Source: a virus
DNA: 64,000 nt
Virus genome (UHGV): UHGV-0141541
Strand: one strand, 5' to 3'
Shown piece after piece: positions 1,719 through 38,841 of the stretch. Numbering within the stretch: position 1 is the stretch's first letter; the number at the start of each line of letters is the position of its first letter. The translations under genes and the position numbers were made by a program. The notes beneath the pieces are model-generated. The model was not told the origin of the DNA and ran no database searches. It worked only from the letters and a program-made list of their open reading frames with translations.

Positions 1719-2639
1719 TTATTCCTGTGCGACAGTAACTTCTACAGTCGCTGTCGCTTTGTGGCTACCATCTTGGGTAGTAACCTCGATTGTGGCAGTG
1801 CCAGCCGCAACACCAGTTACAACACCGGTTTCGCTGTCCACCGTTGCAAACTCGGTATTTTTGGATTCCCAAGTAACGGTTTTATTTGTTGCTCCTGCCG
1901 GCTCGACATTTGCGGTCAGCTGAACAGTTTTGTTTGCCTCAACGGTTGTGCTATTTGGGTCGATTTCGACACCAGTAACAGCCACAACAGGCGCAGTTAC
2001 TTCCACCGTTGCAGTTGCCTTTTTGCTGCCATCTTGGGAAACGATCTCAATCGTCGCAGTGCCAACTTCTACACCAGTAACGTTCCCGCTCTGGTCTACC
2101 GTTGCCTTGTCTTCATTTTTGGAAGACCAGGTAACTGCCTTATTCGTCGCATTTGACGGCTGAACATTCGCTTTCAGACTGACTGATTTCCCTTTCTCAA
2201 CAGAGGTTGAGTCTGGCGTTACCGTTACGGATTGAACGGCTACCGGATTTACGGTGACTTCCACTGACGCGGAAAGCTGGGTTTCCTGATCAGTTGCGGT
2301 AATTTTCACTTTGCCTGGTGCTACGCCAGTTACTAATCCAGTGCCGTTGACGGTTGCAATTTGATCATTGGCTGACTTCCAGGTGAATGAACTGGCACTC
2401 TTACCCATAGTAATACCTGCACTAAGTTGAACAGTTTTCCCAACCAAAACTGACGGTGAAGCCGGGGTTATGTTTACGGATTGGGAGAAGGGAACCGCCT
2501 GCAAACAAGCAGATAGCTGACTTTGTTGTCGCTCGGTTAAAGGTTCATCGGAGATAGAATTGGTAAATCCGGCACGGCACATATGCCCCGTAAAATCCGA
2601 AAATGCCTCTTCCGTAATCTTCATCTTTTGTTCTGGCAT
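1719..2639 (-). CDS. Ig-like (Big_2-type) domain protein, probable capsid decoration protein
   Basis: 306 aa; three repeats of the bacterial Ig-like pattern ATV(x)G(x)VTGVxxGxATIEVT; lies directly downstream of the putative major capsid gene. Confidence 0.75.
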   Translation of the reverse strand: MPEQKMKITEEAFSDFTGHMCRAGFTNSISDEPLTERQQSQLSACLQAVPFSQSVNITPASPSVLVGKTVQLSAGITMGKSASSFTWKSANDQIATVNGTGLVTGVAPGKVKITATDQETQLSASVEVTVNPVAVQSVTVTPDSTSVEKGKSVSLKANVQPSNATNKAVTWSSKNEDKATVDQSGNVTGVEVGTATIEIVSQDGSKKATATVEVTAPVVAVTGVEIDPNSTTVEANKTVQLTANVEPAGATNKTVTWESKNTEFATVDSETGVVTGVAAGTATIEVTTQDGSHKATATVEVTVAQE

Positions 2640-2651
2640 TTCTCGCTCCTA

Positions 2652-2684
2652 CAAAAAGGGTGGGCGTATAGCCCACCCTTTAAC
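2652..2684 (-). terminator. intrinsic terminator/attenuator after capsid gene
   Basis: minus-strand hairpin AAAGGGTGGGC-TATA-CGCCCACCCTTT followed by TTTTT, between capsid stop and Ig-like gene RBS. Confidence 0.5.
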
Positions 2685-2712
2685 ATAGATAATTACTTAT
2701 CTACTGCATTGA

Positions 2713-3588
2713 TTAAATTTTTACATTGGTCAATGCAGCGATAGCCTTATCGTGCTTATTCGCCAGAGAGCAGTACCACTTCACACGGGTACGTACTGCG
2801 TCTTTGTTCTGTACAGTACCAATGTTTTCAACAACGATACCTGCGTTGTCGCCGCCATACAGACCTGTAACGCCGTTCTCTTCTGACAGATGCAGGCAGT
2901 AGATGCTTGCTTTGCCAGAATCGGTCGGGATGAAGTCGTTGATGATGAACGGAACGCCGTTATGACACAGCATCGGACGACCGAAGTTCTCCATCATGAT
3001 TTCAGACGGGCCTACGTTTACTGTACGCAGCAGCGCACGGTAAGCACGCAGGTGCTCTGAACGCATCATGATGCAGTCAGCACCAAGATCTTTCACCGCA
3101 TCGACCAGTTCGTCGAACATAGAGAAAGTCATAGATGCACCGGCGATATCGATCTTCTGATCTGCGTGCATCAGGCGTGGAATGCCGTCAAACGCCTTGT
3201 TGTTGGAGCTGGAGTCACCCAAAATCAGGTTGCGACGGAACGCACGAGCCAGACCTTTAACTTTCTGACGAACCTGAATAGCCAACTGGTTGTTGGTGTC
3301 GGCCATAGTGGTCGCCAGGAATTTATCAACGTCTACGTCACCAGCCAGAATACGCAGTTTCGCAACGCATTCTTCGAAGGTTGCTGCACCTTCAGGGATG
3401 GTGTCGTTAACGTCGATGAAGGTAGCTTCACTCAGCGTTTTTTCACGGTTGTACAGATATGCCTTTGAATTAATTTTCATAAAAGGCAGGATGGCAAACA
3501 GGTCATCGCGATCGATGATAGTTTCGATCACACCCTGTTCAAGTTCGTTGTTAGACAGCTTTTCAGCTTCTTCACGCAGTAATGGCAT
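2713..3588 (-). CDS. major capsid protein (putative)
   Basis: 291 aa ORF in the order terminase - portal - scaffold - this gene - Ig-like decoration; followed by an attenuator hairpin as expected for a highly expressed capsid gene; no sequence motif verified. Confidence 0.55.
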   Translation of the reverse strand: MPLLREEAEKLSNNELEQGVIETIIDRDDLFAILPFMKINSKAYLYNREKTLSEATFIDVNDTIPEGAATFEECVAKLRILAGDVDVDKFLATTMADTNNQLAIQVRQKVKGLARAFRRNLILGDSSSNNKAFDGIPRLMHADQKIDIAGASMTFSMFDELVDAVKDLGADCIMMRSEHLRAYRALLRTVNVGPSEIMMENFGRPMLCHNGVPFIINDFIPTDSGKASIYCLHLSEENGVTGLYGGDNAGIVVENIGTVQNKDAVRTRVKWYCSLANKHDKAIAALTNVKI

Positions 3589-3613
3589 CTATCAATTCCC
3601 TTTGATTTAGATG

Positions 3614-4501
3614 TTACTTAAGTCCAATTTTCCCCAGACCGGAGGCCAACTTATCCATAGTCGACTTGTTCTTCGGTTGGGATATTGTGTAGGTCGATTT
3701 GGAATGTGAGCCTACACCCTGCTTGGCTTCGCTACGCATCAATGCGTCAGCTTCCGGATCTGCCCGCACAATGCGTTCAATCGCGGATTCAAACGGCAAC
3801 GGCTTACCTTCACCGTCAACCAGAACAGCTCGTTCTTTGTGACCTGCCGGTTTGTCATAACCCACTACGCTACCGTCTTCACCCACTTCAAAATGAGAAC
3901 CGTAGATCACGCGGGCTTTGGCCGGGGTCATCAGAACTTTGTCACGTAGGAAGAGAGAGTTACTGAAGGAAGCGCCCACGGTCATCTCGACTAATTGAGA
4001 TTTCAGTGATGCGTTTTCACTTTCCAGTGCTGCATAACGTTCGTCACGCTGTGCCAGCTCTGCCTGGTGTGCTTCGATCATCTGTTTTTTAACAGCATCG
4101 AACTCACCACGACGCTCCAGTTCAGCTTGCTCCGCCTCACGACGTGCGTTTTCTGCGGCCTGTTCAGCTTCTAAAAGCTGGCGAGCACGAGCCGGATCGA
4201 TATCACCGTACTGAGCAAGCTGATCGGCCAATGTGCGCTCTTTCTCTTTGCGCTTCATGTTCTCCTTCAGCAGTTCAGCACCAGCTTTCTTGGTTTTACG
4301 AAGTTCGGCCAGTAACTCTTCCTGAGTCATGCCAGCGTATTCGTCATCGCCCTTCGGCTGCTCTTTTTGTTCACCCTGTTTGTCAGGATCTTGTGTACTC
4401 TGCTCATTATCAGCAGCTACACCGCCAGCGCCTCCACGCTCATGCGCTTCAGCGACATCCATCAGACCACGACGGGCCAAAAGCATTTGCCACAGATTCA
4501 T
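3614..4501 (-). CDS. scaffolding protein (putative)
   Basis: 295 aa; long E/A/Q/R-rich predicted coiled coil in the N-terminal half; located between portal and capsid genes. Confidence 0.45.
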   Translation of the reverse strand: MNLWQMLLARRGLMDVAEAHERGGAGGVAADNEQSTQDPDKQGEQKEQPKGDDEYAGMTQEELLAELRKTKKAGAELLKENMKRKEKERTLADQLAQYGDIDPARARQLLEAEQAAENARREAEQAELERRGEFDAVKKQMIEAHQAELAQRDERYAALESENASLKSQLVEMTVGASFSNSLFLRDKVLMTPAKARVIYGSHFEVGEDGSVVGYDKPAGHKERAVLVDGEGKPLPFESAIERIVRADPEADALMRSEAKQGVGSHSKSTYTISQPKNKSTMDKLASGLGKIGLK

Positions 4502-31614: not shown

Positions 31615-33300
31615 TCATTTAACGCGTTTGAAAACGTATACGCTGACTGTGATCCCTGTGTCTTCAAACTCGTTGGTAAACGACTTCCCTCTGGCATAAA
31701 CGTAATTATCCATCGTCATCCAGTCCAGTATTGGCGCAGTGCCCGGCAATACTGCTACAAGACGCCCGCCGACTTTCAGATGCCCCAGCGCAGCCATCGT
31801 GTGCTCTCTATGACGACCAAGCGAGTACGGCGGGTTCATAACGATTTTGTCGAACTGATAACCTGCGTTGTCCTCAGACCACTTTATGAAGTCGCAGCAA
31901 ATCGTGTTCGTATACCCTTTTCCACGCAGGATATCAGCGAAGAGAGGTGCGATTTCTATGCAGGTAACATCTTCCAGATCGGCGTTAATATAGGCCAGAA
32001 GATCCCCACGTCCGGCTTGAGGCTCCAGCAGCTTCTCACCAGGCTTCAATTCAGTGGCTCTGGCAACGTACTCAGCAATCAAGCGTGGGGTAGGGTAGAA
32101 CTGGTGTGATTTTGTATCCGGTATTAAACCGGTAGCCACAATCGTATTTAGCGTATGGCCGATGTCATACGGGAACTGCCAGTGCTTTTTCTCCTGCACG
32201 CCGCCAATGAAGCTCAGTGTGCGCTCAAGCTCTTCCACATGCGACTTCTGGAGAGCTAAATCAGAGAAGTACCATACGCCTTTGTCTTTGCTCAATCGCC
32301 CGTCACGAAGCGCAGTGCGAACCGGCACGGAGATCGTCTTCTGGATTAACCCGAACTGCTTTGGTGCCCGTGTTTTTGGGGCAGTTCGGCATGGCGCGGG
32401 GATTGCAGCAGGCATACTGTAAGCCAGCACCTCATTCAACTTCCAGGCCACGTCAGGATGTATTTCAAAGTGAACGTTGCCGTTCTTGAACATCTTCACG
32501 CGCATCAGATTTCCATCGACGTTCATCCAGTCACCGGTCTGGCAGTCGTTTGCCCTATACGCAGCTGATAGCACCTCAGCAGTGCGGTTGATGGTAATAA
32601 ATTCTTTGTGCGCGAAGAAATGAAGCAAGACACGTAGATCGTCGATGTAGTCCTCTTTGCGATAGTTCACGCTAACGCTGTCCCGCCAGAAATCAGAAAT
32701 GCAGTCAGCGATTATCAGCCGCTCGCTGAAACCGTTTGTCTTATTTGTCTTGTGCGCAGGACTCAGCGCCTTAAACAAGCCATACACGCGCTCAGAGAGA
32801 TATTTGTGCCTGTCATTCAGTAAATTAAGCATCGTGGGTATGACCGTTTCTGCTTTGAACTCCGGTACACCAACGAACTCTTTAACCTTCATCTGGTAGC
32901 CGGTTCTGTCAGTTTTGATGACTTCCTGTTTGCCCTCTATAAACTGCTCGCGCCACTCATCTCGACGGGAAGCTGGCATGATCAGCAAAACGTTAGTCAT
33001 GTCCGTGACCTTCCTCCAGTACTCGGCCCAAATATTCTGTTTCACCCATTCCAGATCGACTTTATCCAACCAACCTCGATTTAAACGCGAGCGATCTTCA
33101 TCTGGTCGATGGTTTAGTCTCAGCAGGCGATTAATCATGTTGTGGCGTTCGTCGCCATAAACGAAGTCGTGTACCTGATACATGAAGGCGATCTCTTTCT
33201 CGCACTCGGCCACGATTTCGTGGATGACATTCATTTCCTGACGATAGTCGATAGCCGTGTTTGAGCTGGCATCGTCGATGATGGAAAGGGCTGTATTCAT
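31615..33300 (-). CDS. large protein with C-terminal gamma-class N6-adenine DNA methyltransferase domain
   Basis: 561 aa; motif X QFYPTP, motif I LLEPQAGRGDL, motif IV VMNPPY in the C-terminal ~200 aa; N-terminal ~350 aa unassigned. Confidence 0.7.
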   Translation of the reverse strand: MNTALSIIDDASSNTAIDYRQEMNVIHEIVAECEKEIAFMYQVHDFVYGDERHNMINRLLRLNHRPDEDRSRLNRGWLDKVDLEWVKQNIWAEYWRKVTDMTNVLLIMPASRRDEWREQFIEGKQEVIKTDRTGYQMKVKEFVGVPEFKAETVIPTMLNLLNDRHKYLSERVYGLFKALSPAHKTNKTNGFSERLIIADCISDFWRDSVSVNYRKEDYIDDLRVLLHFFAHKEFITINRTAEVLSAAYRANDCQTGDWMNVDGNLMRVKMFKNGNVHFEIHPDVAWKLNEVLAYSMPAAIPAPCRTAPKTRAPKQFGLIQKTISVPVRTALRDGRLSKDKGVWYFSDLALQKSHVEELERTLSFIGGVQEKKHWQFPYDIGHTLNTIVATGLIPDTKSHQFYPTPRLIAEYVARATELKPGEKLLEPQAGRGDLLAYINADLEDVTCIEIAPLFADILRGKGYTNTICCDFIKWSEDNAGYQFDKIVMNPPYSLGRHREHTMAALGHLKVGGRLVAVLPGTAPILDWMTMDNYVYARGKSFTNEFEDTGITVSVYVFKRVK

Positions 33301-33441
33301 AATTACACCATTAAATAATTTGTTTTCTGATTGGTGTAATTATCGCAAACTTGAAAAGGCATAAAAGCTGCATTCATAGGCGTTACAGCAGATTTAAGGC
33401 GTAAAAATGGGGGCTGTCGCCCCCTGTCGACTGGTGCTGTA

Positions 33442-34008
33442 TTAGAGTGCGTATTGCGTTTTGTGCGGCTGCTTATTCAAGTCATGGCGATGCGTGAGCT
33501 CCCGCATCATGTCTTCAAGGCGACTCTTTGTGTCGTCAAGCTGGTCGGCCATTGCACCTAAAAGCTGGCGAACGGCCATCGGATCGTCGCTGTTTAGTGA
33601 TGGCATTTTATAACCTGCTTTAGAAGACATAAGGTTGATTGCAGACATCAACATCGTTAGAGAGGATTTAAGCCCGGCAATTTCACGATCTTTGCTGGCA
33701 ATAATCGTCTCACTTTTGTTGCCGTCATCAGTTCCTTGAGTCTCGCTCACCATATCCAAAGTCGCTTGCAACTTATCAGCTCTCTCTTTTTCAGCAAGGT
33801 AATGAACACCGAAATGGTGTGCCAAAGCTACAATCTGAGTTGGCTCTTCAAAGGTGGAATTAAAATTAAGTATTGTAAACAGTCTCTCAAATATGGAAAC
33901 GTCTTCTATTCCTCGAAGAATGGCTAACATTTTGACAAGTTCATTAGCATCCATTTCTTCGAATAGGGCGTTTTGTTCATCAGCTATTGCTTTGCATTTC
34001 TCGCACAT
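33442..34008 (-). CDS. hypothetical protein
   Basis: 188 aa ORF preceded by motif family 1 copy at 34027-34058. Confidence 0.5.
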   Translation of the reverse strand: MCEKCKAIADEQNALFEEMDANELVKMLAILRGIEDVSIFERLFTILNFNSTFEEPTQIVALAHHFGVHYLAEKERADKLQATLDMVSETQGTDDGNKSETIIASKDREIAGLKSSLTMLMSAINLMSSKAGYKMPSLNSDDPMAVRQLLGAMADQLDDTKSRLEDMMRELTHRHDLNKQPHKTQYAL

Positions 34009-34305
34009 GTGTTTTCCTTAATGCTTAAACAAGTTGTTTTCTTATTGGCTTTATTGTGATGTGGCATATAAGGGGAGCAAGCTAAACGTAAAGGTGCAAA
34101 CTCTCTATTTCGGTCAACGAAACACAAGGGCCAAATGGCCCTTGTCATTAACACTTTGCTTTACGAACTAACGGATAAGCGAAGTAGATCGCCAAACCAA
34201 TGAGGACGCCATCAGAAATGACAGACATCATCTTTCCCGTAAAATCCACCAACACCGCCATCACCAGAAGAGCAATGACGATCACAAGCCGGAATCTCTC
34301 AAGCA

Positions 34306-34731
34306 TTAGAGATAAGCATCCAGTGACAACTGAAGCGCCTGGGCGATCTTTTTCAGTGCCTGCTCTTCTTGTTCACCAATGCCATCCTGATCGGCAATAT
34401 CAAGGCACAGACACAGAACATCGACCGCCTCTGGAGTACCCGCAATATCAGACAGCTCACGAATAGCCTGTGCATTAGCAGAACGAGGGGACGCTTCGTA
34501 ACGAGCACGGATATTGGCGCTCATTTGGGCAATTTCACCAGCAAACGGAGAAAACGCAGGCAGAGCTGCAATTGTCTTCTCAAGAATGGCAATTTCTTTT
34601 GCGTCACATGTGCCGTCGGCATAGGAGATCATGTACGCGCCCCACACGGTGGCCTCAACCGCATCACGGTTCTCCATTTTTTTGACTTCGATAACTGCTT
34701 TACGAGTTTTCTTTTTGAAGAAACCTAACAT
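34306..34731 (-). CDS. TerB-like domain protein (tentative)
   Basis: 141 aa; helical, ISYADG/EIAILE-type pattern reminiscent of TerB; RBS AAGGA; own upstream motif family 1 copy. Confidence 0.4.
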   Translation of the reverse strand: MLGFFKKKTRKAVIEVKKMENRDAVEATVWGAYMISYADGTCDAKEIAILEKTIAALPAFSPFAGEIAQMSANIRARYEASPRSANAQAIRELSDIAGTPEAVDVLCLCLDIADQDGIGEQEEQALKKIAQALQLSLDAYL

Positions 34732-34824
34732 GTGTTTTCCTTTTGTTATTTGTCAAAACAAGTTGTTTTCTAGTTAAATAAATTGCTTACGCAAAGACGG
34801 TCAATGCATATGCACTAACAACCG

Positions 34825-35013
34825 TCAGAAATAACCAAGTACCGAACCGACTGGAAAAATAAAAATCCCAACTACACGAGCCAAGGTCATGCCAGCCTGA
34901 AACTGGAGATCGCCAGAGCAAACAAGTTTTATAATGTTCGATACCCAACCGGCGGCCATGAGGGCAAGAATTGCCAGCCAAATTTTTCCAAAGTGATTTG
35001 AAAACCAGTTCAT
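34825..35013 (-). CDS. small two-TM membrane protein
   Basis: 62 aa with two hydrophobic segments. Confidence 0.45.
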   Translation of the reverse strand: MNWFSNHFGKIWLAILALMAAGWVSNIIKLVCSGDLQFQAGMTLARVVGIFIFPVGSVLGYF

Positions 35014-35022
35014 ACAACCGCC

Positions 35023-35517
35023 TTAGTCACAGCATGATCCTGAGTAACTGGATGAACTTGAGGTATCGCATCCACCGCCATCCCATCCAGAGTGACAGGA
35101 CGCTCCACTGGAGTGGTGGTAATTGTCGTCGACGAAGGTATGGTGATGGATGAATCCGGCATCAAAAGGCTCTGACCGGCTGGAACGGCTACCGTCGCCA
35201 GTGAAACTATAATGAGAACGTAGGCCATTGGTTTCAGCCTCTTTCTTTGAAAATTTTCCATTCGAACTGTCCTTGTTGTTTTTCTCCTTCACTAAAGGCC
35301 GTGCATTTTTCGCTTCGCGTGAAGAACCAGAGGCAACAATCGCCCCCACGTTCGCAACAACTGACGCTTGATTATCTAAACGTTCATTCAGCAACCGAAC
35401 GGTAGTCTCTAGTTCATCAAGGCGTGACATAACACGACCGCTAAATAATTCGGCCAAAATTTGACGTAAAGAACGAGGACGTTTAGTTACAGAAGTGAAA
35501 TAGGTTTGACGTGCCAT
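35023..35517 (-). CDS. hypothetical protein with coiled-coil N-terminus and S/G/C-rich tail; contains nested alternate-frame ORF
   Basis: 164 aa; nested ORF 35010-35261 encodes a Pro/Thr-rich protein with a signal-like segment. Confidence 0.45.
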   Translation of the reverse strand: MARQTYFTSVTKRPRSLRQILAELFSGRVMSRLDELETTVRLLNERLDNQASVVANVGAIVASGSSREAKNARPLVKEKNNKDSSNGKFSKKEAETNGLRSHYSFTGDGSRSSRSEPFDAGFIHHHTFVDDNYHHSSGASCHSGWDGGGCDTSSSSSYSGSCCD

Positions 35518-35665
35518 GTGGACTCCATCCAGTGTCAGAAAGAGTTGCGGCTGGCGATTGCCAGCCGCCTTTCTCGTTCCATCCTGGAACTGTGTCTTAC
35601 CGACACATTGTCATCCTGACGCCGATAAGATACATGATTTAAAATGATAGGTAAACACTTACTTA

Positions 35666-36256
35666 CTATTTGTTATAAACAAAACCAATATCTTTCTTGT
35701 GAGGCATATCTGCTGCTGAAAAAGCTGCGATCTTCGCGAGTCGATCACATATTTCATTTTCACGATGCCCGGCGTGACCTTTAACCCACTTCCAGCGAAC
35801 ATTATGTCGACTTGCGGCCTCATCCAGACGCTTCCACAGATCAACATTCTTTACCGGTTTTTTGTCAGAAGTCATCCATCCATTGCGTTTCCACCATTTC
35901 ATCCACTGTGTCATGCCGTTTTTCAGATACTGGCTATCAGAGTGCAAAATAACGTTGCATGGATATTTCAAACGCTCCAGCCCGATAAGTGCCCCCATCA
36001 TCTCCATGCGGTTATTGGTGGTGCTATGAAAACCATCTGAGAACTCGCGTTCCTCACCACGATACTGGAGAACGATACCGTAACCGCCCGGGCCACCCGG
36101 ATTTTTAAGGCAAGAGCCATCACTAAAGATTTTCACGGTTTTAAGCTGGGGATTGAACTCTACGACAGGCGTTGTGGGATTGGTGCGGGGAGAATTTTTG
36201 TTTTTGTCTTTTTTGCGAGTTTTTGCTTGCGATCGGGCTGGTGTCTTCGTCGTCAT
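35666..36256 (-). CDS. rnhA: ribonuclease H (RNase HI family) with basic N-terminal extension
   Basis: FSDGSC...GGYG...TNNRMEM...SDSQY...VKNVDLW...VKGHAGH..NE.CD pattern closely matches RNase HI; start set at MTTKTP (RBS AGGAG). Confidence 0.85.
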
Positions 36257-36837
36257 ATAAACTCCTGAATCAAGCGCCGCGCCGATTTTTCCTCGCGCGT
36301 GCGCACACGCGTGCGTGTTAATAATTATTAAAATAAACAAATTACTTCCCAGAACAGGTTTTTATAAACCTGAACTGAACGAACGAAGTGAGTGAAGTTC
36401 ACCTCGAACGAAGTGAGAGGTTGTCTTTTCAGGTAATACTCTCCCAGGGAGGTGAGTATAAAATTCCTCACCAACCTGGTCGTTTCATAACCTGAAAAGC
36501 TATGGTCTAAGTCTACTGCCAGCTTAGACTTGGGAAGTTATGGATGACAGCACCCCAGAACCGAGATCTTCCCACACTTTATGAAGGGGAGTACTGGATT
36601 CAACCTCTCGAAACACCCCAGACTCGACAATCATAAAGTGACCCTTGTCTCTGCTCACTTTGGTTCCCCCTTCCCCGACACCTATACGGCACCGGTTCTA
36701 CGCTGGTAGTGAGCTTTTTTAAACCTGACGCCAGTGACGCTTACCCCCACCCATCAGGTCGAGCCTCCAGTCTACGACTGGAAACTATCAGATCTTAGCA
36801 CTTACAATTCACTTTATGAATAGTTTGTACTTATCTA

Positions 36838-37068
36838 TCATTGTGATTGATTATTTTCTCGACCATGTAGTTGAACATTCAAGGCAAACACCTCATTGAT
36901 CAACTCACCTAAAAGCTGTTCAACAAGTTCGCGATGCTCGCCAAGATGCAAGCACTTAATTGCCCACTCGTACAAGTTGAAAGCCTGCTCACGATCTTTC
37001 ATCATTTCACGAGCCTGGGCCAGAAAATCGCTCTCTACGAGCGCAACGACATTAGTCGGGTATGACAT
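36838..37068 (-). CDS. hypothetical small protein
   Basis: ORF track 36838-37092; likely start MSYPTN; 76 aa. Confidence 0.4.
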   Translation of the reverse strand: MSYPTNVVALVESDFLAQAREMMKDREQAFNLYEWAIKCLHLGEHRELVEQLLGELINEVFALNVQLHGRENNQSQ

Positions 37069-37173
37069 GTTGGTTTCCTTAAAGTGGTTCATAAAATCGA
37101 TTTTAAAGCGTCTGGGAAGGGGGTCTAGTGGATTCTGTAGTGATGTTCAGGTCTGGGAGTCTCTGATACAAAA

Positions 37174-37233
37174 CAGCCTGCTTCCGTATATTAATAATTA
37201 ATATGTAGTTATTTATATATACAGAAGCAGGCT
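37174..37233. promoter_or_regulatory. IR-flanked AT-rich element (copy B)
   Basis: AGCCTGCTTC ... GAAGCAGGCT arms around a ~40-bp AT-rich core; near-identical copy at 8125-8185. Confidence 0.5.
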
Positions 37234-37254
37234 AATTACAGACGCCAGAACAAA

Positions 37255-37848
37255 CTAAGCAGCCTTCTTTGATGGTCTTTTTTTCCTGATCACATTCGCA
37301 GGATCATACCCTCCCAGACTTTTCATGACGTCCAAAGGGATCTTGCTTATAGAGTGCCCAGCGTCCTGACAGAATCCTCGAAAAACAACGAGCATACTGC
37401 CACCTGGGTTGATGTTTACTTCTACCTGACCCAGATTGACGTCAGGCTCGACAAACGCTACGCGGCCACCAGACAGAATAATCGTCTCATTCGCACACTC
37501 TGTTGCACGCTCATACCACTTTGTATCTAGGGATTGAGGAATTAGCATCACTGTTGTAACTCCGCGAGCCTGCTCACGTATAGCCGCATCAATCCAGGGG
37601 GAGATTTTGGAGTAGGGTGGATTGAGGAAGGCAATTGTACCTGGCTGTCCCCATTCAGATTTCAAAGCATCACGCTCAACGCCTATGAAATTAGGCAGCT
37701 TTGCATTGTCCTTGTTGCAGGCAACGTCAACATCAAATGTCACTCCAAGATAACGTTGAATGGCAGAAAACAGCCAGTCAGGTGTTCTCCAGAGGTCACG
37801 AAGAGAGTTGTCGCGCTTTCGCTGTTTGATTTTTTCGGCTGCAATCAT
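37255..37848 (-). CDS. dam: DNA N6-adenine methyltransferase (phage Dam-type)
   Basis: 197 aa; WRTPDWLF, FDVDVA, FLNPPY motifs typical of small phage Dam methylases. Confidence 0.75.
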   Translation of the reverse strand: MIAAEKIKQRKRDNSLRDLWRTPDWLFSAIQRYLGVTFDVDVACNKDNAKLPNFIGVERDALKSEWGQPGTIAFLNPPYSKISPWIDAAIREQARGVTTVMLIPQSLDTKWYERATECANETIILSGGRVAFVEPDVNLGQVEVNINPGGSMLVVFRGFCQDAGHSISKIPLDVMKSLGGYDPANVIRKKRPSKKAA

Positions 37849-38031
37849 CTTCTTTCTCGATAGGTAAGTAAATACCTATTTTTGCATTTGATTATATGTC
37901 TGGCAATCAAATAAAACGCGCCAGAAATGCAAACGAGAAGCTCTCTGGCGCGTTTTTGTGGTGCTGGGTATGTGATTGGCTTACCCAGCACTATAAAGCT
38001 CTCTATGGGCTTTATTTTCAGTAGGGGAACG

Positions 38032-38841
38032 TCATCCAATAGTGTACTCCGCGACAAACTTCTTAACGATCGGTGATTCTTCGTTCAATGTTAGATTTCC
38101 ACCGTCTCTAACGGCAATTCCTGTCGCTGGAAATACAGCCATCATTTGCCCAGCCTGAGTTGACGCAGTGTTAAGCGGATACGGTTTTTCTGGATTGCTC
38201 ATTAAAGCAATCTTAATACTATTACTTGTAGCCTTCTTTTCTGTGAGAAGGTGTCTCATGGAAATTACCGTGTAAACACTAATATCTGGACCTCCGCTAA
38301 ACCAATTAAGAAGGTTTAATATCTTATCCTTTGCTTTGACAGGCGCGTTATCGTAAGCGTCTAAGAAAATATCTTTTTCTAAGCCCGCTTTATTGAAAAA
38401 CGAATCATCTTTATCACTTAAAGTAAAACGCGGACCTCTTGCAGTACGAGCTTTTTTATTTGTATTGCTATCATTTGACTGTTGAACTTTTAATTCATCA
38501 TTAACCTCAACACACTCTTCAACCTCAATAAATCCCAATTGTTCTGGCTCGTTTTCGGCAGCTTCAACACTTTCAGCGTTAATTACGTTTATAGGCTCAT
38601 GCGCTAACTCCAACTCATTTAAAGCAGAGCTGAAATCACCTGTTTTTTCTTCATTGAACAGTTCTTCGGCAACATCATCAGAACTCATGGCTACGCCAGC
38701 ATCTAGGCCGAGCAGCAGATCGTCAATATCATCAGTATTTTCAACCTGTGCAGCTTTTTTTACTGGTTCATCAAGTGATTGCAACATGGCTGTCAGCTCG
38801 TCCAGATCATCATTTGTCATTACATTTTCAACCGAACTCAT
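38032..38841 (-). CDS. hypothetical protein with very acidic N-terminal half
   Basis: 269 aa; D/E-rich N-terminus; followed by two hairpins at 37925-37995. Confidence 0.5.
   Translation of the reverse strand: MSSVENVMTNDDLDELTAMLQSLDEPVKKAAQVENTDDIDDLLLGLDAGVAMSSDDVAEELFNEEKTGDFSSALNELELAHEPINVINAESVEAAENEPEQLGFIEVEECVEVNDELKVQQSNDSNTNKKARTARGPRFTLSDKDDSFFNKAGLEKDIFLDAYDNAPVKAKDKILNLLNWFSGGPDISVYTVISMRHLLTEKKATSNSIKIALMSNPEKPYPLNTASTQAGQMMAVFPATGIAVRDGGNLTLNEESPIVKKFVAEYTIG

Follow-up and report, generated by a model that had tools for sequence, protein, structure and literature searches.

Does a pair of phage-borne DNA adenine methyltransferases (MTases) without a restriction partner serve to protect the DNA of the phage itself, and what is the large N-terminal region of one of these enzymes for? 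The question is raised by the UHGV virus genome UHGV-0141541, of which we analysed a stretch of 64,000 nucleotides (nt), hereafter the window, with two open reading frames (ORFs) of 561 and 197 amino acids (aa) lying between positions 31,615 and 37,848. Our analysis suggests, with a probability of about 0.65, that both products are orphan DNA adenine MTases which are active in lytic replication and pre-methylate phage DNA against restriction. Both genes are already catalogued, annotated and typical of temperate phages, and to that extent the finding is ordinary; its one exception is the DUF4942 domain of the large protein, which is structurally unmatched and of no known function.

Two adenine methyltransferase genes

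As judged from DNA identities of 97-98% to Escherichia phage Cyrano (the pLF82 of E. coli LF82) and phage CMS-2020a, 83% to Salmonella phage SSU5 and about 78% to Klebsiella SSU5-like phage-plasmids, the window is a portion of an SSU5-like phage-plasmid. Both ORFs are located on the minus strand in a long run of leftward genes, and their synteny is kept in Cyrano, SSU5 and Klebsiella pJN2-26. The 561-aa gene is the orthologue of CYRAN_90 and SSU5_095, annotated as 'DUF4942 domain-containing protein' in Cyrano and as 'putative DNA modification methylase' in the SSU5 GenBank record, and the 197-aa gene is that of CYRAN_79 and SSU5_088 ('Adenine methyltransferase' and 'putative N-6-adenine-methyltransferase', respectively). 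The identical 561-aa sequence is public on 264 contigs and the identical 197-aa sequence on at least 1000. The large gene is carried by 251 of the 5,426 complete E. coli genomes, where 247 of 256 matching places are plasmids, almost always of about 110 kb. The phage-plasmid papers do not discuss these genes, and DUF4942 receives only passing mentions in the literature. Of all window ORFs that reach 120 aa, only the two MTase ORFs contain the motif [DNS]PP[YFWH].

The large gene and its catalytic part comprise the following features:

31615..33300, minus strand: gene of the DUF4942 plus N6-adenine MTase protein, 561 aa (ORF; phrog_6263; 97-98% to Cyrano/CMS-2020a)
31618..32115, minus strand: minimal gamma-type (TaqI/HsdM-like) N6-adenine MTase catalytic domain, aa 396-561
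32086-32100, minus strand: motif X, FYPTP, aa 401-405
31999-32028, minus strand: motif I, LEPQAGRGDL, aa 425-434
31825-31836, minus strand: motif IV, NPPY, aa 489-492

The original prediction, made from the sequence letters, named two adenine-type MTases and placed motifs X, I and IV of the 561-aa protein in its C-terminal third; both statements were borne out, the former by the motifs, the hidden Markov model (HMM) matches and the two ORFs, the latter because the motifs occupy aa 401-405, 425-434 and 489-492. All three lie within the last ~165 residues in the gamma-class order X-I-IV, motif X standing in the context H-Q-F-Y-P-T-P with a TP cap, and each is conserved at 90% or more in 136 family representatives. 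A chance occurrence is contradicted by the PADLOC matches of the protein to mad2 (E-value 2.6e-15) and MTase_II (E-value 2e-10). Furthermore, the PHROG family phrog_6263, 'DNA methyltransferase', matched it over the full length (E-value 7e-299), and the best sequence match of the family profile in the PDB was M.TaqI (E-value 2e-4). In the predicted structure, the catalytic domain adopts a Class I Rossmann MTase fold that superposes on M.TaqI, and the structures that match it with the highest identity are those of two DNA enzymes, CamA (27%) and TaqI (24%).

The small protein was recognised with family models and corresponds to one feature:

37255..37848, minus strand: phage N6-adenine MTase gene, 197 aa (PF05869/TIGR01712; NPPY at 37612-37623)

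Its scores exceed the curated cut-offs of both Pfam PF05869 'Dam' (131.8 bits; cut-off 28.1) and TIGR01712 phage_N6A_met (113.9 bits; cut-off 97.05), and its motifs are WRTP (aa 20-23), FDVDVAC (aa 38-44) and NPPY (aa 76-79). The gap between the two MTase genes is 3,955 bp, and the expected small Dam-type methylase 4 kb away is thus present as an MTase, with 'Dam' applying in the Pfam-name sense only (PF05869, Stx-phage type). The alpha-class Dam family of E. coli and T4 (PF02086) gave no match at an E-value of 0.01 or below; the two share a common name and are not relatives at the family level. Relatives of the 197-aa protein were found in 1,979 phage records, the Stx-phage enzymes being 39% identical to it and sharing NPPY, a minimal size that leaves out any separate recognition domain, the phage location and the lack of a partner. 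Phage T1 Dam is another example of the PF05869/TIGR01712 type. GATC is the most likely target of the small enzyme, given its identity of about 39% to Stx-phage relatives, one of which, M.EcoVT2Dam, has GATC as its listed specificity (PMC6602927); since the small enzyme is less than 40% identical to the characterised members, this assignment is only inferred. Assignment of the small enzyme to the non-specific Hia5/Hin1523 family was considered and rejected, as those enzymes are related to E. coli Dam and carry DPPY/FxGxG (PMC3299994).

Partner search and genomic neighbourhood

No restriction endonuclease partner had been evident at first reading, and the wider search agreed. Pfam and PADLOC gave no nuclease or defence-system match in ten neighbouring products; the whole Cyrano annotation holds no restriction endonuclease and lists only recombination and repair nucleases; and when the ORFs of 64 loci, each at least 9 kb long and taken from different species, were all clustered, no conserved neighbour of the large MTase family emerged, the MTase gene being the sole shared gene. 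The next-best cluster, a cI-like S24 repressor, was present in 7 of the 64 loci, among other neighbours such as integrases, YqaJ recombinases, DUF932 proteins, a Gp3-like recombination directionality factor and orphan N6_N4 MTases. Distant homologues in Variovorax and an Enterobacterales bacterium reside in lambdoid early-right operons with other MTases alongside, and the family loci are phage and prophage early regions spread across Proteobacteria. Because of this clustering and of the lambdoid-operon homologues, the large-enzyme family is regarded, from its gene context, as phage- or prophage-borne and solitary. Likewise, both genes of the window are, as far as gene content indicates, orphan MTases without an adjacent endonuclease, a fast-evolving and unrecognisable nuclease retaining a small residual probability.

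Homologues of the same size in Pseudomonas phages bear names that would point elsewhere: Dolphis gp121 (1936-3624) is called 'RE endonuclease' and MR13 gp23c (1969-3600) 'restriction alleviation protein, Lar family'. Neither name found support in this analysis. Membership of MADS was rejected as well, the mad2 match covering the MTase domain only (aa 394-523) and the ten neighbours giving no PADLOC matches.

Expression and control regions

Both MTase genes are effectively silent in the plasmid or lysogenic state, as judged in the near-identical Cyrano, because their RNA stays at background level. In RNA sequencing of the LF82 lysogen, CYRAN_90 and CYRAN_79 had mean values of 7.8 and 6.0 fragments per kilobase per million (FPKM), in a table where the background median is 9.8, the 'moron' cut-off 49 and the repressor-like CYRAN_98 reaches 148 (supplement of PMC9928086). 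With lysogen RNA at background, protection by either MTase must come in lytic growth. The self-protective methylation proposed for this element therefore does not apply to its plasmid or lysogenic state and is possible only via lytic growth.

The large gene is preceded by a control region of its own:

33301..33441, minus strand: upstream non-coding region of the large gene (terminator-like hairpin, conserved stretch, inverted repeat)

A terminator-like hairpin that belongs to the preceding gene lies at 33409-33424. A conserved TTTGnGATAAT, resembling an extended -10 element, and AATGGTG are present as well, and the upstream sequence is conserved in SSU5-like elements of six genera (Escherichia, Salmonella, Klebsiella, Kluyvera, Xenorhabdus and Morganella). 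Over the Shine-Dalgarno-like sequence and the ATG of the large gene extends a perfect 12-nt inverted repeat, ATAATTACACCA/TGGTGTAATTAT (33299-33310 / 33332-33343), which as RNA would have a folding energy of -12.6 kcal/mol in the window and, through one compensatory change, -19.1 kcal/mol in Cyrano. This repeat may serve as an operator or control translation. An RNA hairpin over the start codon as a family-wide regulator was rejected: it is stable in the window and Cyrano, but SSU5 and Klebsiella pJN2-26 have no hairpin, so that its formation is confined to the E. coli lineage.

Upstream of the small MTase gene, the region 37849-38031 contains many inverted repeats, including a perfect, terminator-like 13-nt pair AAAACGCGCCAGA/TCTGGCGCGTTTT, and a promoter-like site is found at 37906-37878 on the minus strand. 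A 70-aa ORF at 37845-38057 is unannotated in relatives and is probably spurious.

The N-terminal region and DUF4942

Upstream of the catalytic domain, the large protein is divided into three parts:

33055..33300, minus strand: variable helical N-terminal segment, aa 1-82 (identity 13.5%; helices in the AlphaFold2 (AF2) model)
32383..33054, minus strand: conserved N-domain core, aa 83-306 (includes the DUF4942 match aa 140-295 = 32416-32883)
32116..32349, minus strand: small alpha/beta sub-domain before the MTase, aa 318-395 (AF2 secondary structure; conserved IGGV and W-x-F-P-Y)

The first ~350 residues, which the original prediction left unassigned, proved to contain Pfam PF13708 DUF4942, which matched aa 140-295 with an E-value of 1.7e-20 and 73.9 bits against a gathering cut-off of 25. 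The fusion to this domain, which the wording there made seem unusual, turned out to be the rule. A full HMMER scan with aa 1-383 as query yielded an N-domain family of 609 cluster representatives, and in 126 of 129 full-length representatives (median 536 aa) motif IV, (D/N)PP(Y/F/W/H), was found at the same C-terminal position. It follows that the combination of DUF4942 and MTase is the constant layout of a large family catalogued in Pfam and not specific to this element.

Conservation is unevenly distributed along the N-terminal region. Against the 136 family representatives, aa 1-82 have a mean identity of just 13.5%, and the AF2 model shows long helices at aa 15-48 and 52-62 with a predicted local distance difference test score (pLDDT) below 50 at aa 1-17. 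The core (aa 83-306) is 37.6% identical to the query, compared with 36.6% for the catalytic domain, and the invariant polar residues of the N-domain include S180, H183, T185, N186, R194, D221, R223, D262, H277, E279 and N289. A separate AF2 model of aa 78-395 was confident (pLDDT 86.8, predicted template modelling score 0.76). A structure search of BFVD with the N-domain model gave no significant match, and the PDB gave neither a sequence-profile match nor a structural match for this domain. The N-region matched no known catalytic fold or HMM, no nuclease fold or nuclease HMM was found in it, and structure searches did not convincingly recover a known DNA-binding fold. The 299-aa PHROG family phrog_38825 aligned to aa 129-302 alone, and the sub-domain before the MTase co-occurs with the MTase in the larger phage family phrog_9133 (aa 328-560 aligned, E-value 9e-50). 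To the existing annotation this analysis adds that DUF4942 is always fused to a TaqI-like module devoid of a recognition domain, that its conservation equals that of the active site, and that no relative of it is found among solved structures.

The DUF4942 part of the gene also has a match in a chromosomal type I-E CRISPR spacer of E. coli AST85, in an array beside cas1e-cas2e, which matches window positions 32594-32625 over 32 of 32 nt, or 33 nt including the last base of the repeat. The spacer follows the first of the repeats displayed beside cas2e (602-633 of the locus examined), and the protospacer is preceded by ATG, which we take to be a functional type I-E protospacer adjacent motif. 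Chromosomal matches to the large gene occur at nine places, of which the AST85 array is the one inspected.

Comparison with known systems

The 561-aa protein differs from M.TaqI and HsdM by a ~395-aa N-terminal region of unmatched fold before the catalytic domain. M.TaqI has a C-terminal recognition domain, and the 561-aa protein has none: in the AF2 model and the structure comparison, aa 561 is the last strand of the catalytic domain. Another parallel is offered by polyvalent phage proteins, in which the MTase is an EcoKI/TaqI-like adenine methylase, described as monophyletic, that has a TP cap at its N-terminus and NPP(Y/F) (Iyer et al. 2017, PMC5512222). This signature of the polyvalent, DarB-like antirestriction proteins is displayed by the 561-aa protein too (QFYPTP with the TP cap, and NPPY). 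Its catalytic module with the ~70 aa before it matched PHROG families of 1,259-3,925-aa proteins. By tblastn, the module was also located in Vibrio phage D96a, as part of a protein of 3,066 aa, and in the 'DarB-like antirestriction' protein of Skulduggery; a word-indexed search for which the C-terminal 244 aa served as query yielded nothing but fragments of the protein's own family. Thus, DarB-like proteins and the 561-aa protein are alike in a homologous catalytic module and the same presumed anti-restriction purpose. They differ in that an SF2/SNF2 helicase lies C-terminal to the MTase of DarB-like proteins, whereas the 561-aa protein ends after the MTase and has no helicase HMM match. Unlike the DarB-like genes, its gene stands among early and accessory rather than structural genes with no sign of virion packaging, and DUF4942 takes the place of their LPD-type partners. 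In a comparison with the LPD36 domain and its GxGU motif, which precede the MTase in DarB-like proteins, aa 328-395 carried the conserved IGGV, but the predicted sub-domain is alpha/beta and not four-helical.

Further parallels are Hia5/Hin1523 of Mu-like prophages (PMC3299994) and M.EcoGIX of conjugative plasmids (PMC7736820), which are similarly partner-less and borne by mobile elements, are unexpressed or undetectable while resident, and have been proposed to shield the element's DNA on transfer. The sequence classes differ, Hia5 being Dam-related (alpha) and M.EcoGIX a beta-class enzyme with DPPY, and the large enzyme was accordingly rejected as M.EcoGIX-like (PMC7736820). For Hia5 (PMC3299994) and M.EcoGIX (PMC7736820) relaxed or single-strand specificity has been experimentally shown, unlike for the DUF4942 family.

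Probable protective methylation in lytic growth

The observations are best explained by protective methylation in the lytic cycle. Both genes would be essentially silent during plasmid maintenance and would be switched on in lytic development, a timing that we infer. Newly made phage DNA would then be methylated by both enzymes, so that a packaged genome would bring with it, on its next infection, resistance to those restriction enzymes that cleave the target in its unmethylated form. In the large enzyme, the DUF4942 core and the alpha/beta sub-domain would most likely bind DNA and position the target adenine for the minimal TaqI/HsdM-like module. Target recognition, already suggested for the N-region by the original prediction, is the most economical role because the catalytic module ends the protein without a C-terminal recognition domain, and the DUF4942 region would supply the DNA binding absent from the truncated TaqI-like module. 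The degree of its conservation fits that suggestion less well, recognition domains being variable in enzymes that differ in specificity. Throughout Proteobacteria, the N-region equals the catalytic site in conservation; the members of the family therefore probably have a single specificity, conserved or relaxed, in common instead of many different ones.

A number of points weigh against this explanation. The target sites and even the substrate of both enzymes are putative, and the Pfam DNA-MTase models remained below threshold for the large protein (N6_Mtase 18.2 bits vs 20.4, Eco57I 12 vs 25.3). The high conservation of the N-domain and its invariant His, Asp and Glu residues would equally fit an enzymatic role. 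GATC methylation would be redundant in Dam+ enterobacterial hosts. Finally, the element already escapes many Type II enzymes by avoidance of their sites. In the 108 kb of Cyrano, 6-bp palindromes (Type II sites) are strongly avoided and the window follows the same trend: the observed/expected counts in Cyrano are 0/29.9 for AAGCTT, 0/24.8 for AGCGCT, 0/18.3 for GAGCTC, 0/13.7 for CCATGG, 0/8.6 for GGATCC, 1/16.9 for GCATGC, 2/18.5 for GAATTC, 2/20.9 for GGCGCC and 7/27.7 for CTGCAG. GATC is not avoided (289 observed vs 324 expected in the window), nor are TGATCA, AGATCT and CGATCG. As a sign of restriction pressure on the element, the extreme avoidance of 6-bp palindromes also counts in favour of the protective explanation.

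A bolder variant, which we put forward tentatively and consider rather unlikely, assigns DUF4942 to a previously unseen fold that provides unconventional target selection or, through the invariant His, Asp and Glu residues, a second catalytic activity. Unconventional selection could consist, for example, in one conserved or relaxed specificity, or in the recognition of a DNA structure such as replication or packaging intermediates. If this were true, the protein would be more than a plain site-specific methylase, namely a compact anti-defence enzyme with two functions.

Alternative explanations

Protective methylation has to be weighed against a regulatory main role of one or both enzymes, in which methylation of the phage's own DNA times replication, packaging or expression, or host DNA is methylated during infection. 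In phage P1, adenine methylation is used at pac. The redundancy of a GATC-type enzyme for protection in Dam+ hosts and the lack of GATC avoidance in the element speak for such a role, as does the conserved upstream control region of the large gene with the inverted repeat over its start codon. We nevertheless regard it as unlikely: regulated methylation sites could not be identified in the sequence, the family spans very different phages and prophages that share no replication or packaging module, and its clustering with other orphan MTases in prophages better fits an anti-restriction set of several specificities.

It is also doubtful, and a little more so, that the 561-aa protein is bifunctional in the sense that DUF4942 is an independent effector or enzyme, e.g., with an anti-defence activity, tethered to a DarB-like MTase instead of serving as its recognition domain. 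Homologues of the MTase module are embedded in giant phage proteins of many domains (PMC5512222), the DUF4942 core is conserved to the same degree as the catalytic domain with H183, D221, R223, D262, H277 and E279 invariant, phrog_38825 matches its region as a stand-alone family, and the searches for a DNA-binding fold remained unconvincing. Against these stand the one-to-one fusion, invariable in order and spacing, that 126 of 129 representatives show, the catalytic module that has no recognition domain of its own, and the lack of any match of the N-region to a known catalytic fold or HMM.

That the large protein instead methylates RNA (m6A or m2G in ribosomal or transfer RNA) or protein (Gln-N5) for host takeover is improbable. 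The m6A enzymes of ribosomal RNA resemble the DNA enzymes in fold and in profile scores against the catalytic domain, but motif X 'QFYPTP' with its TP cap is the signature of HsdM/TaqI-type DNA MTases, the strongest HMM matches and the structural matches of highest identity are DNA MTases, and the genomic neighbours are other DNA MTases.

Finally, a single-chain restriction-modification enzyme (Type IIG/IIL-like) with a cryptic endonuclease in the N-region is very improbable: its indications are the name of the same-size Dolphis homologue, a weak PADLOC match to REase_MTase_IIG (E-value 1.1e-3) confined to aa 456-521 of the MTase domain, and D262...E279-x-H281 on a three-stranded beta-meander that in our reading of the AF2 model and the alignment faintly recalls PD-(D/E)xK, and membership of the Type IIG/IIL (MmeI-like) enzymes was rejected as no N-terminal endonuclease domain was encountered.

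Other genes of the region

Between the two MTase genes, 34148-34731 codes for a P1 TciA-like protein of 141 aa with a TerB domain and for a membrane peptide of 52 aa that is TciB-like; SSU5 has the Ant antirepressor instead at the equivalent position. An RNase H ORF at 35666-36340 has an ambiguous start, being 224 aa long from TTG, with 197 aa in Cyrano and 254 aa in SSU5; the Pfam RNase_H match spans aa 68-206 of the 224-aa ORF.

Significance

SSU5-like phage-plasmids are common in clinical Enterobacteriaceae, and their host range depends on the evasion of restriction. The target sites of both enzymes, once known, would help to explain this host range. Furthermore, a function would be assigned to a Pfam domain present in hundreds of proteobacterial prophages.

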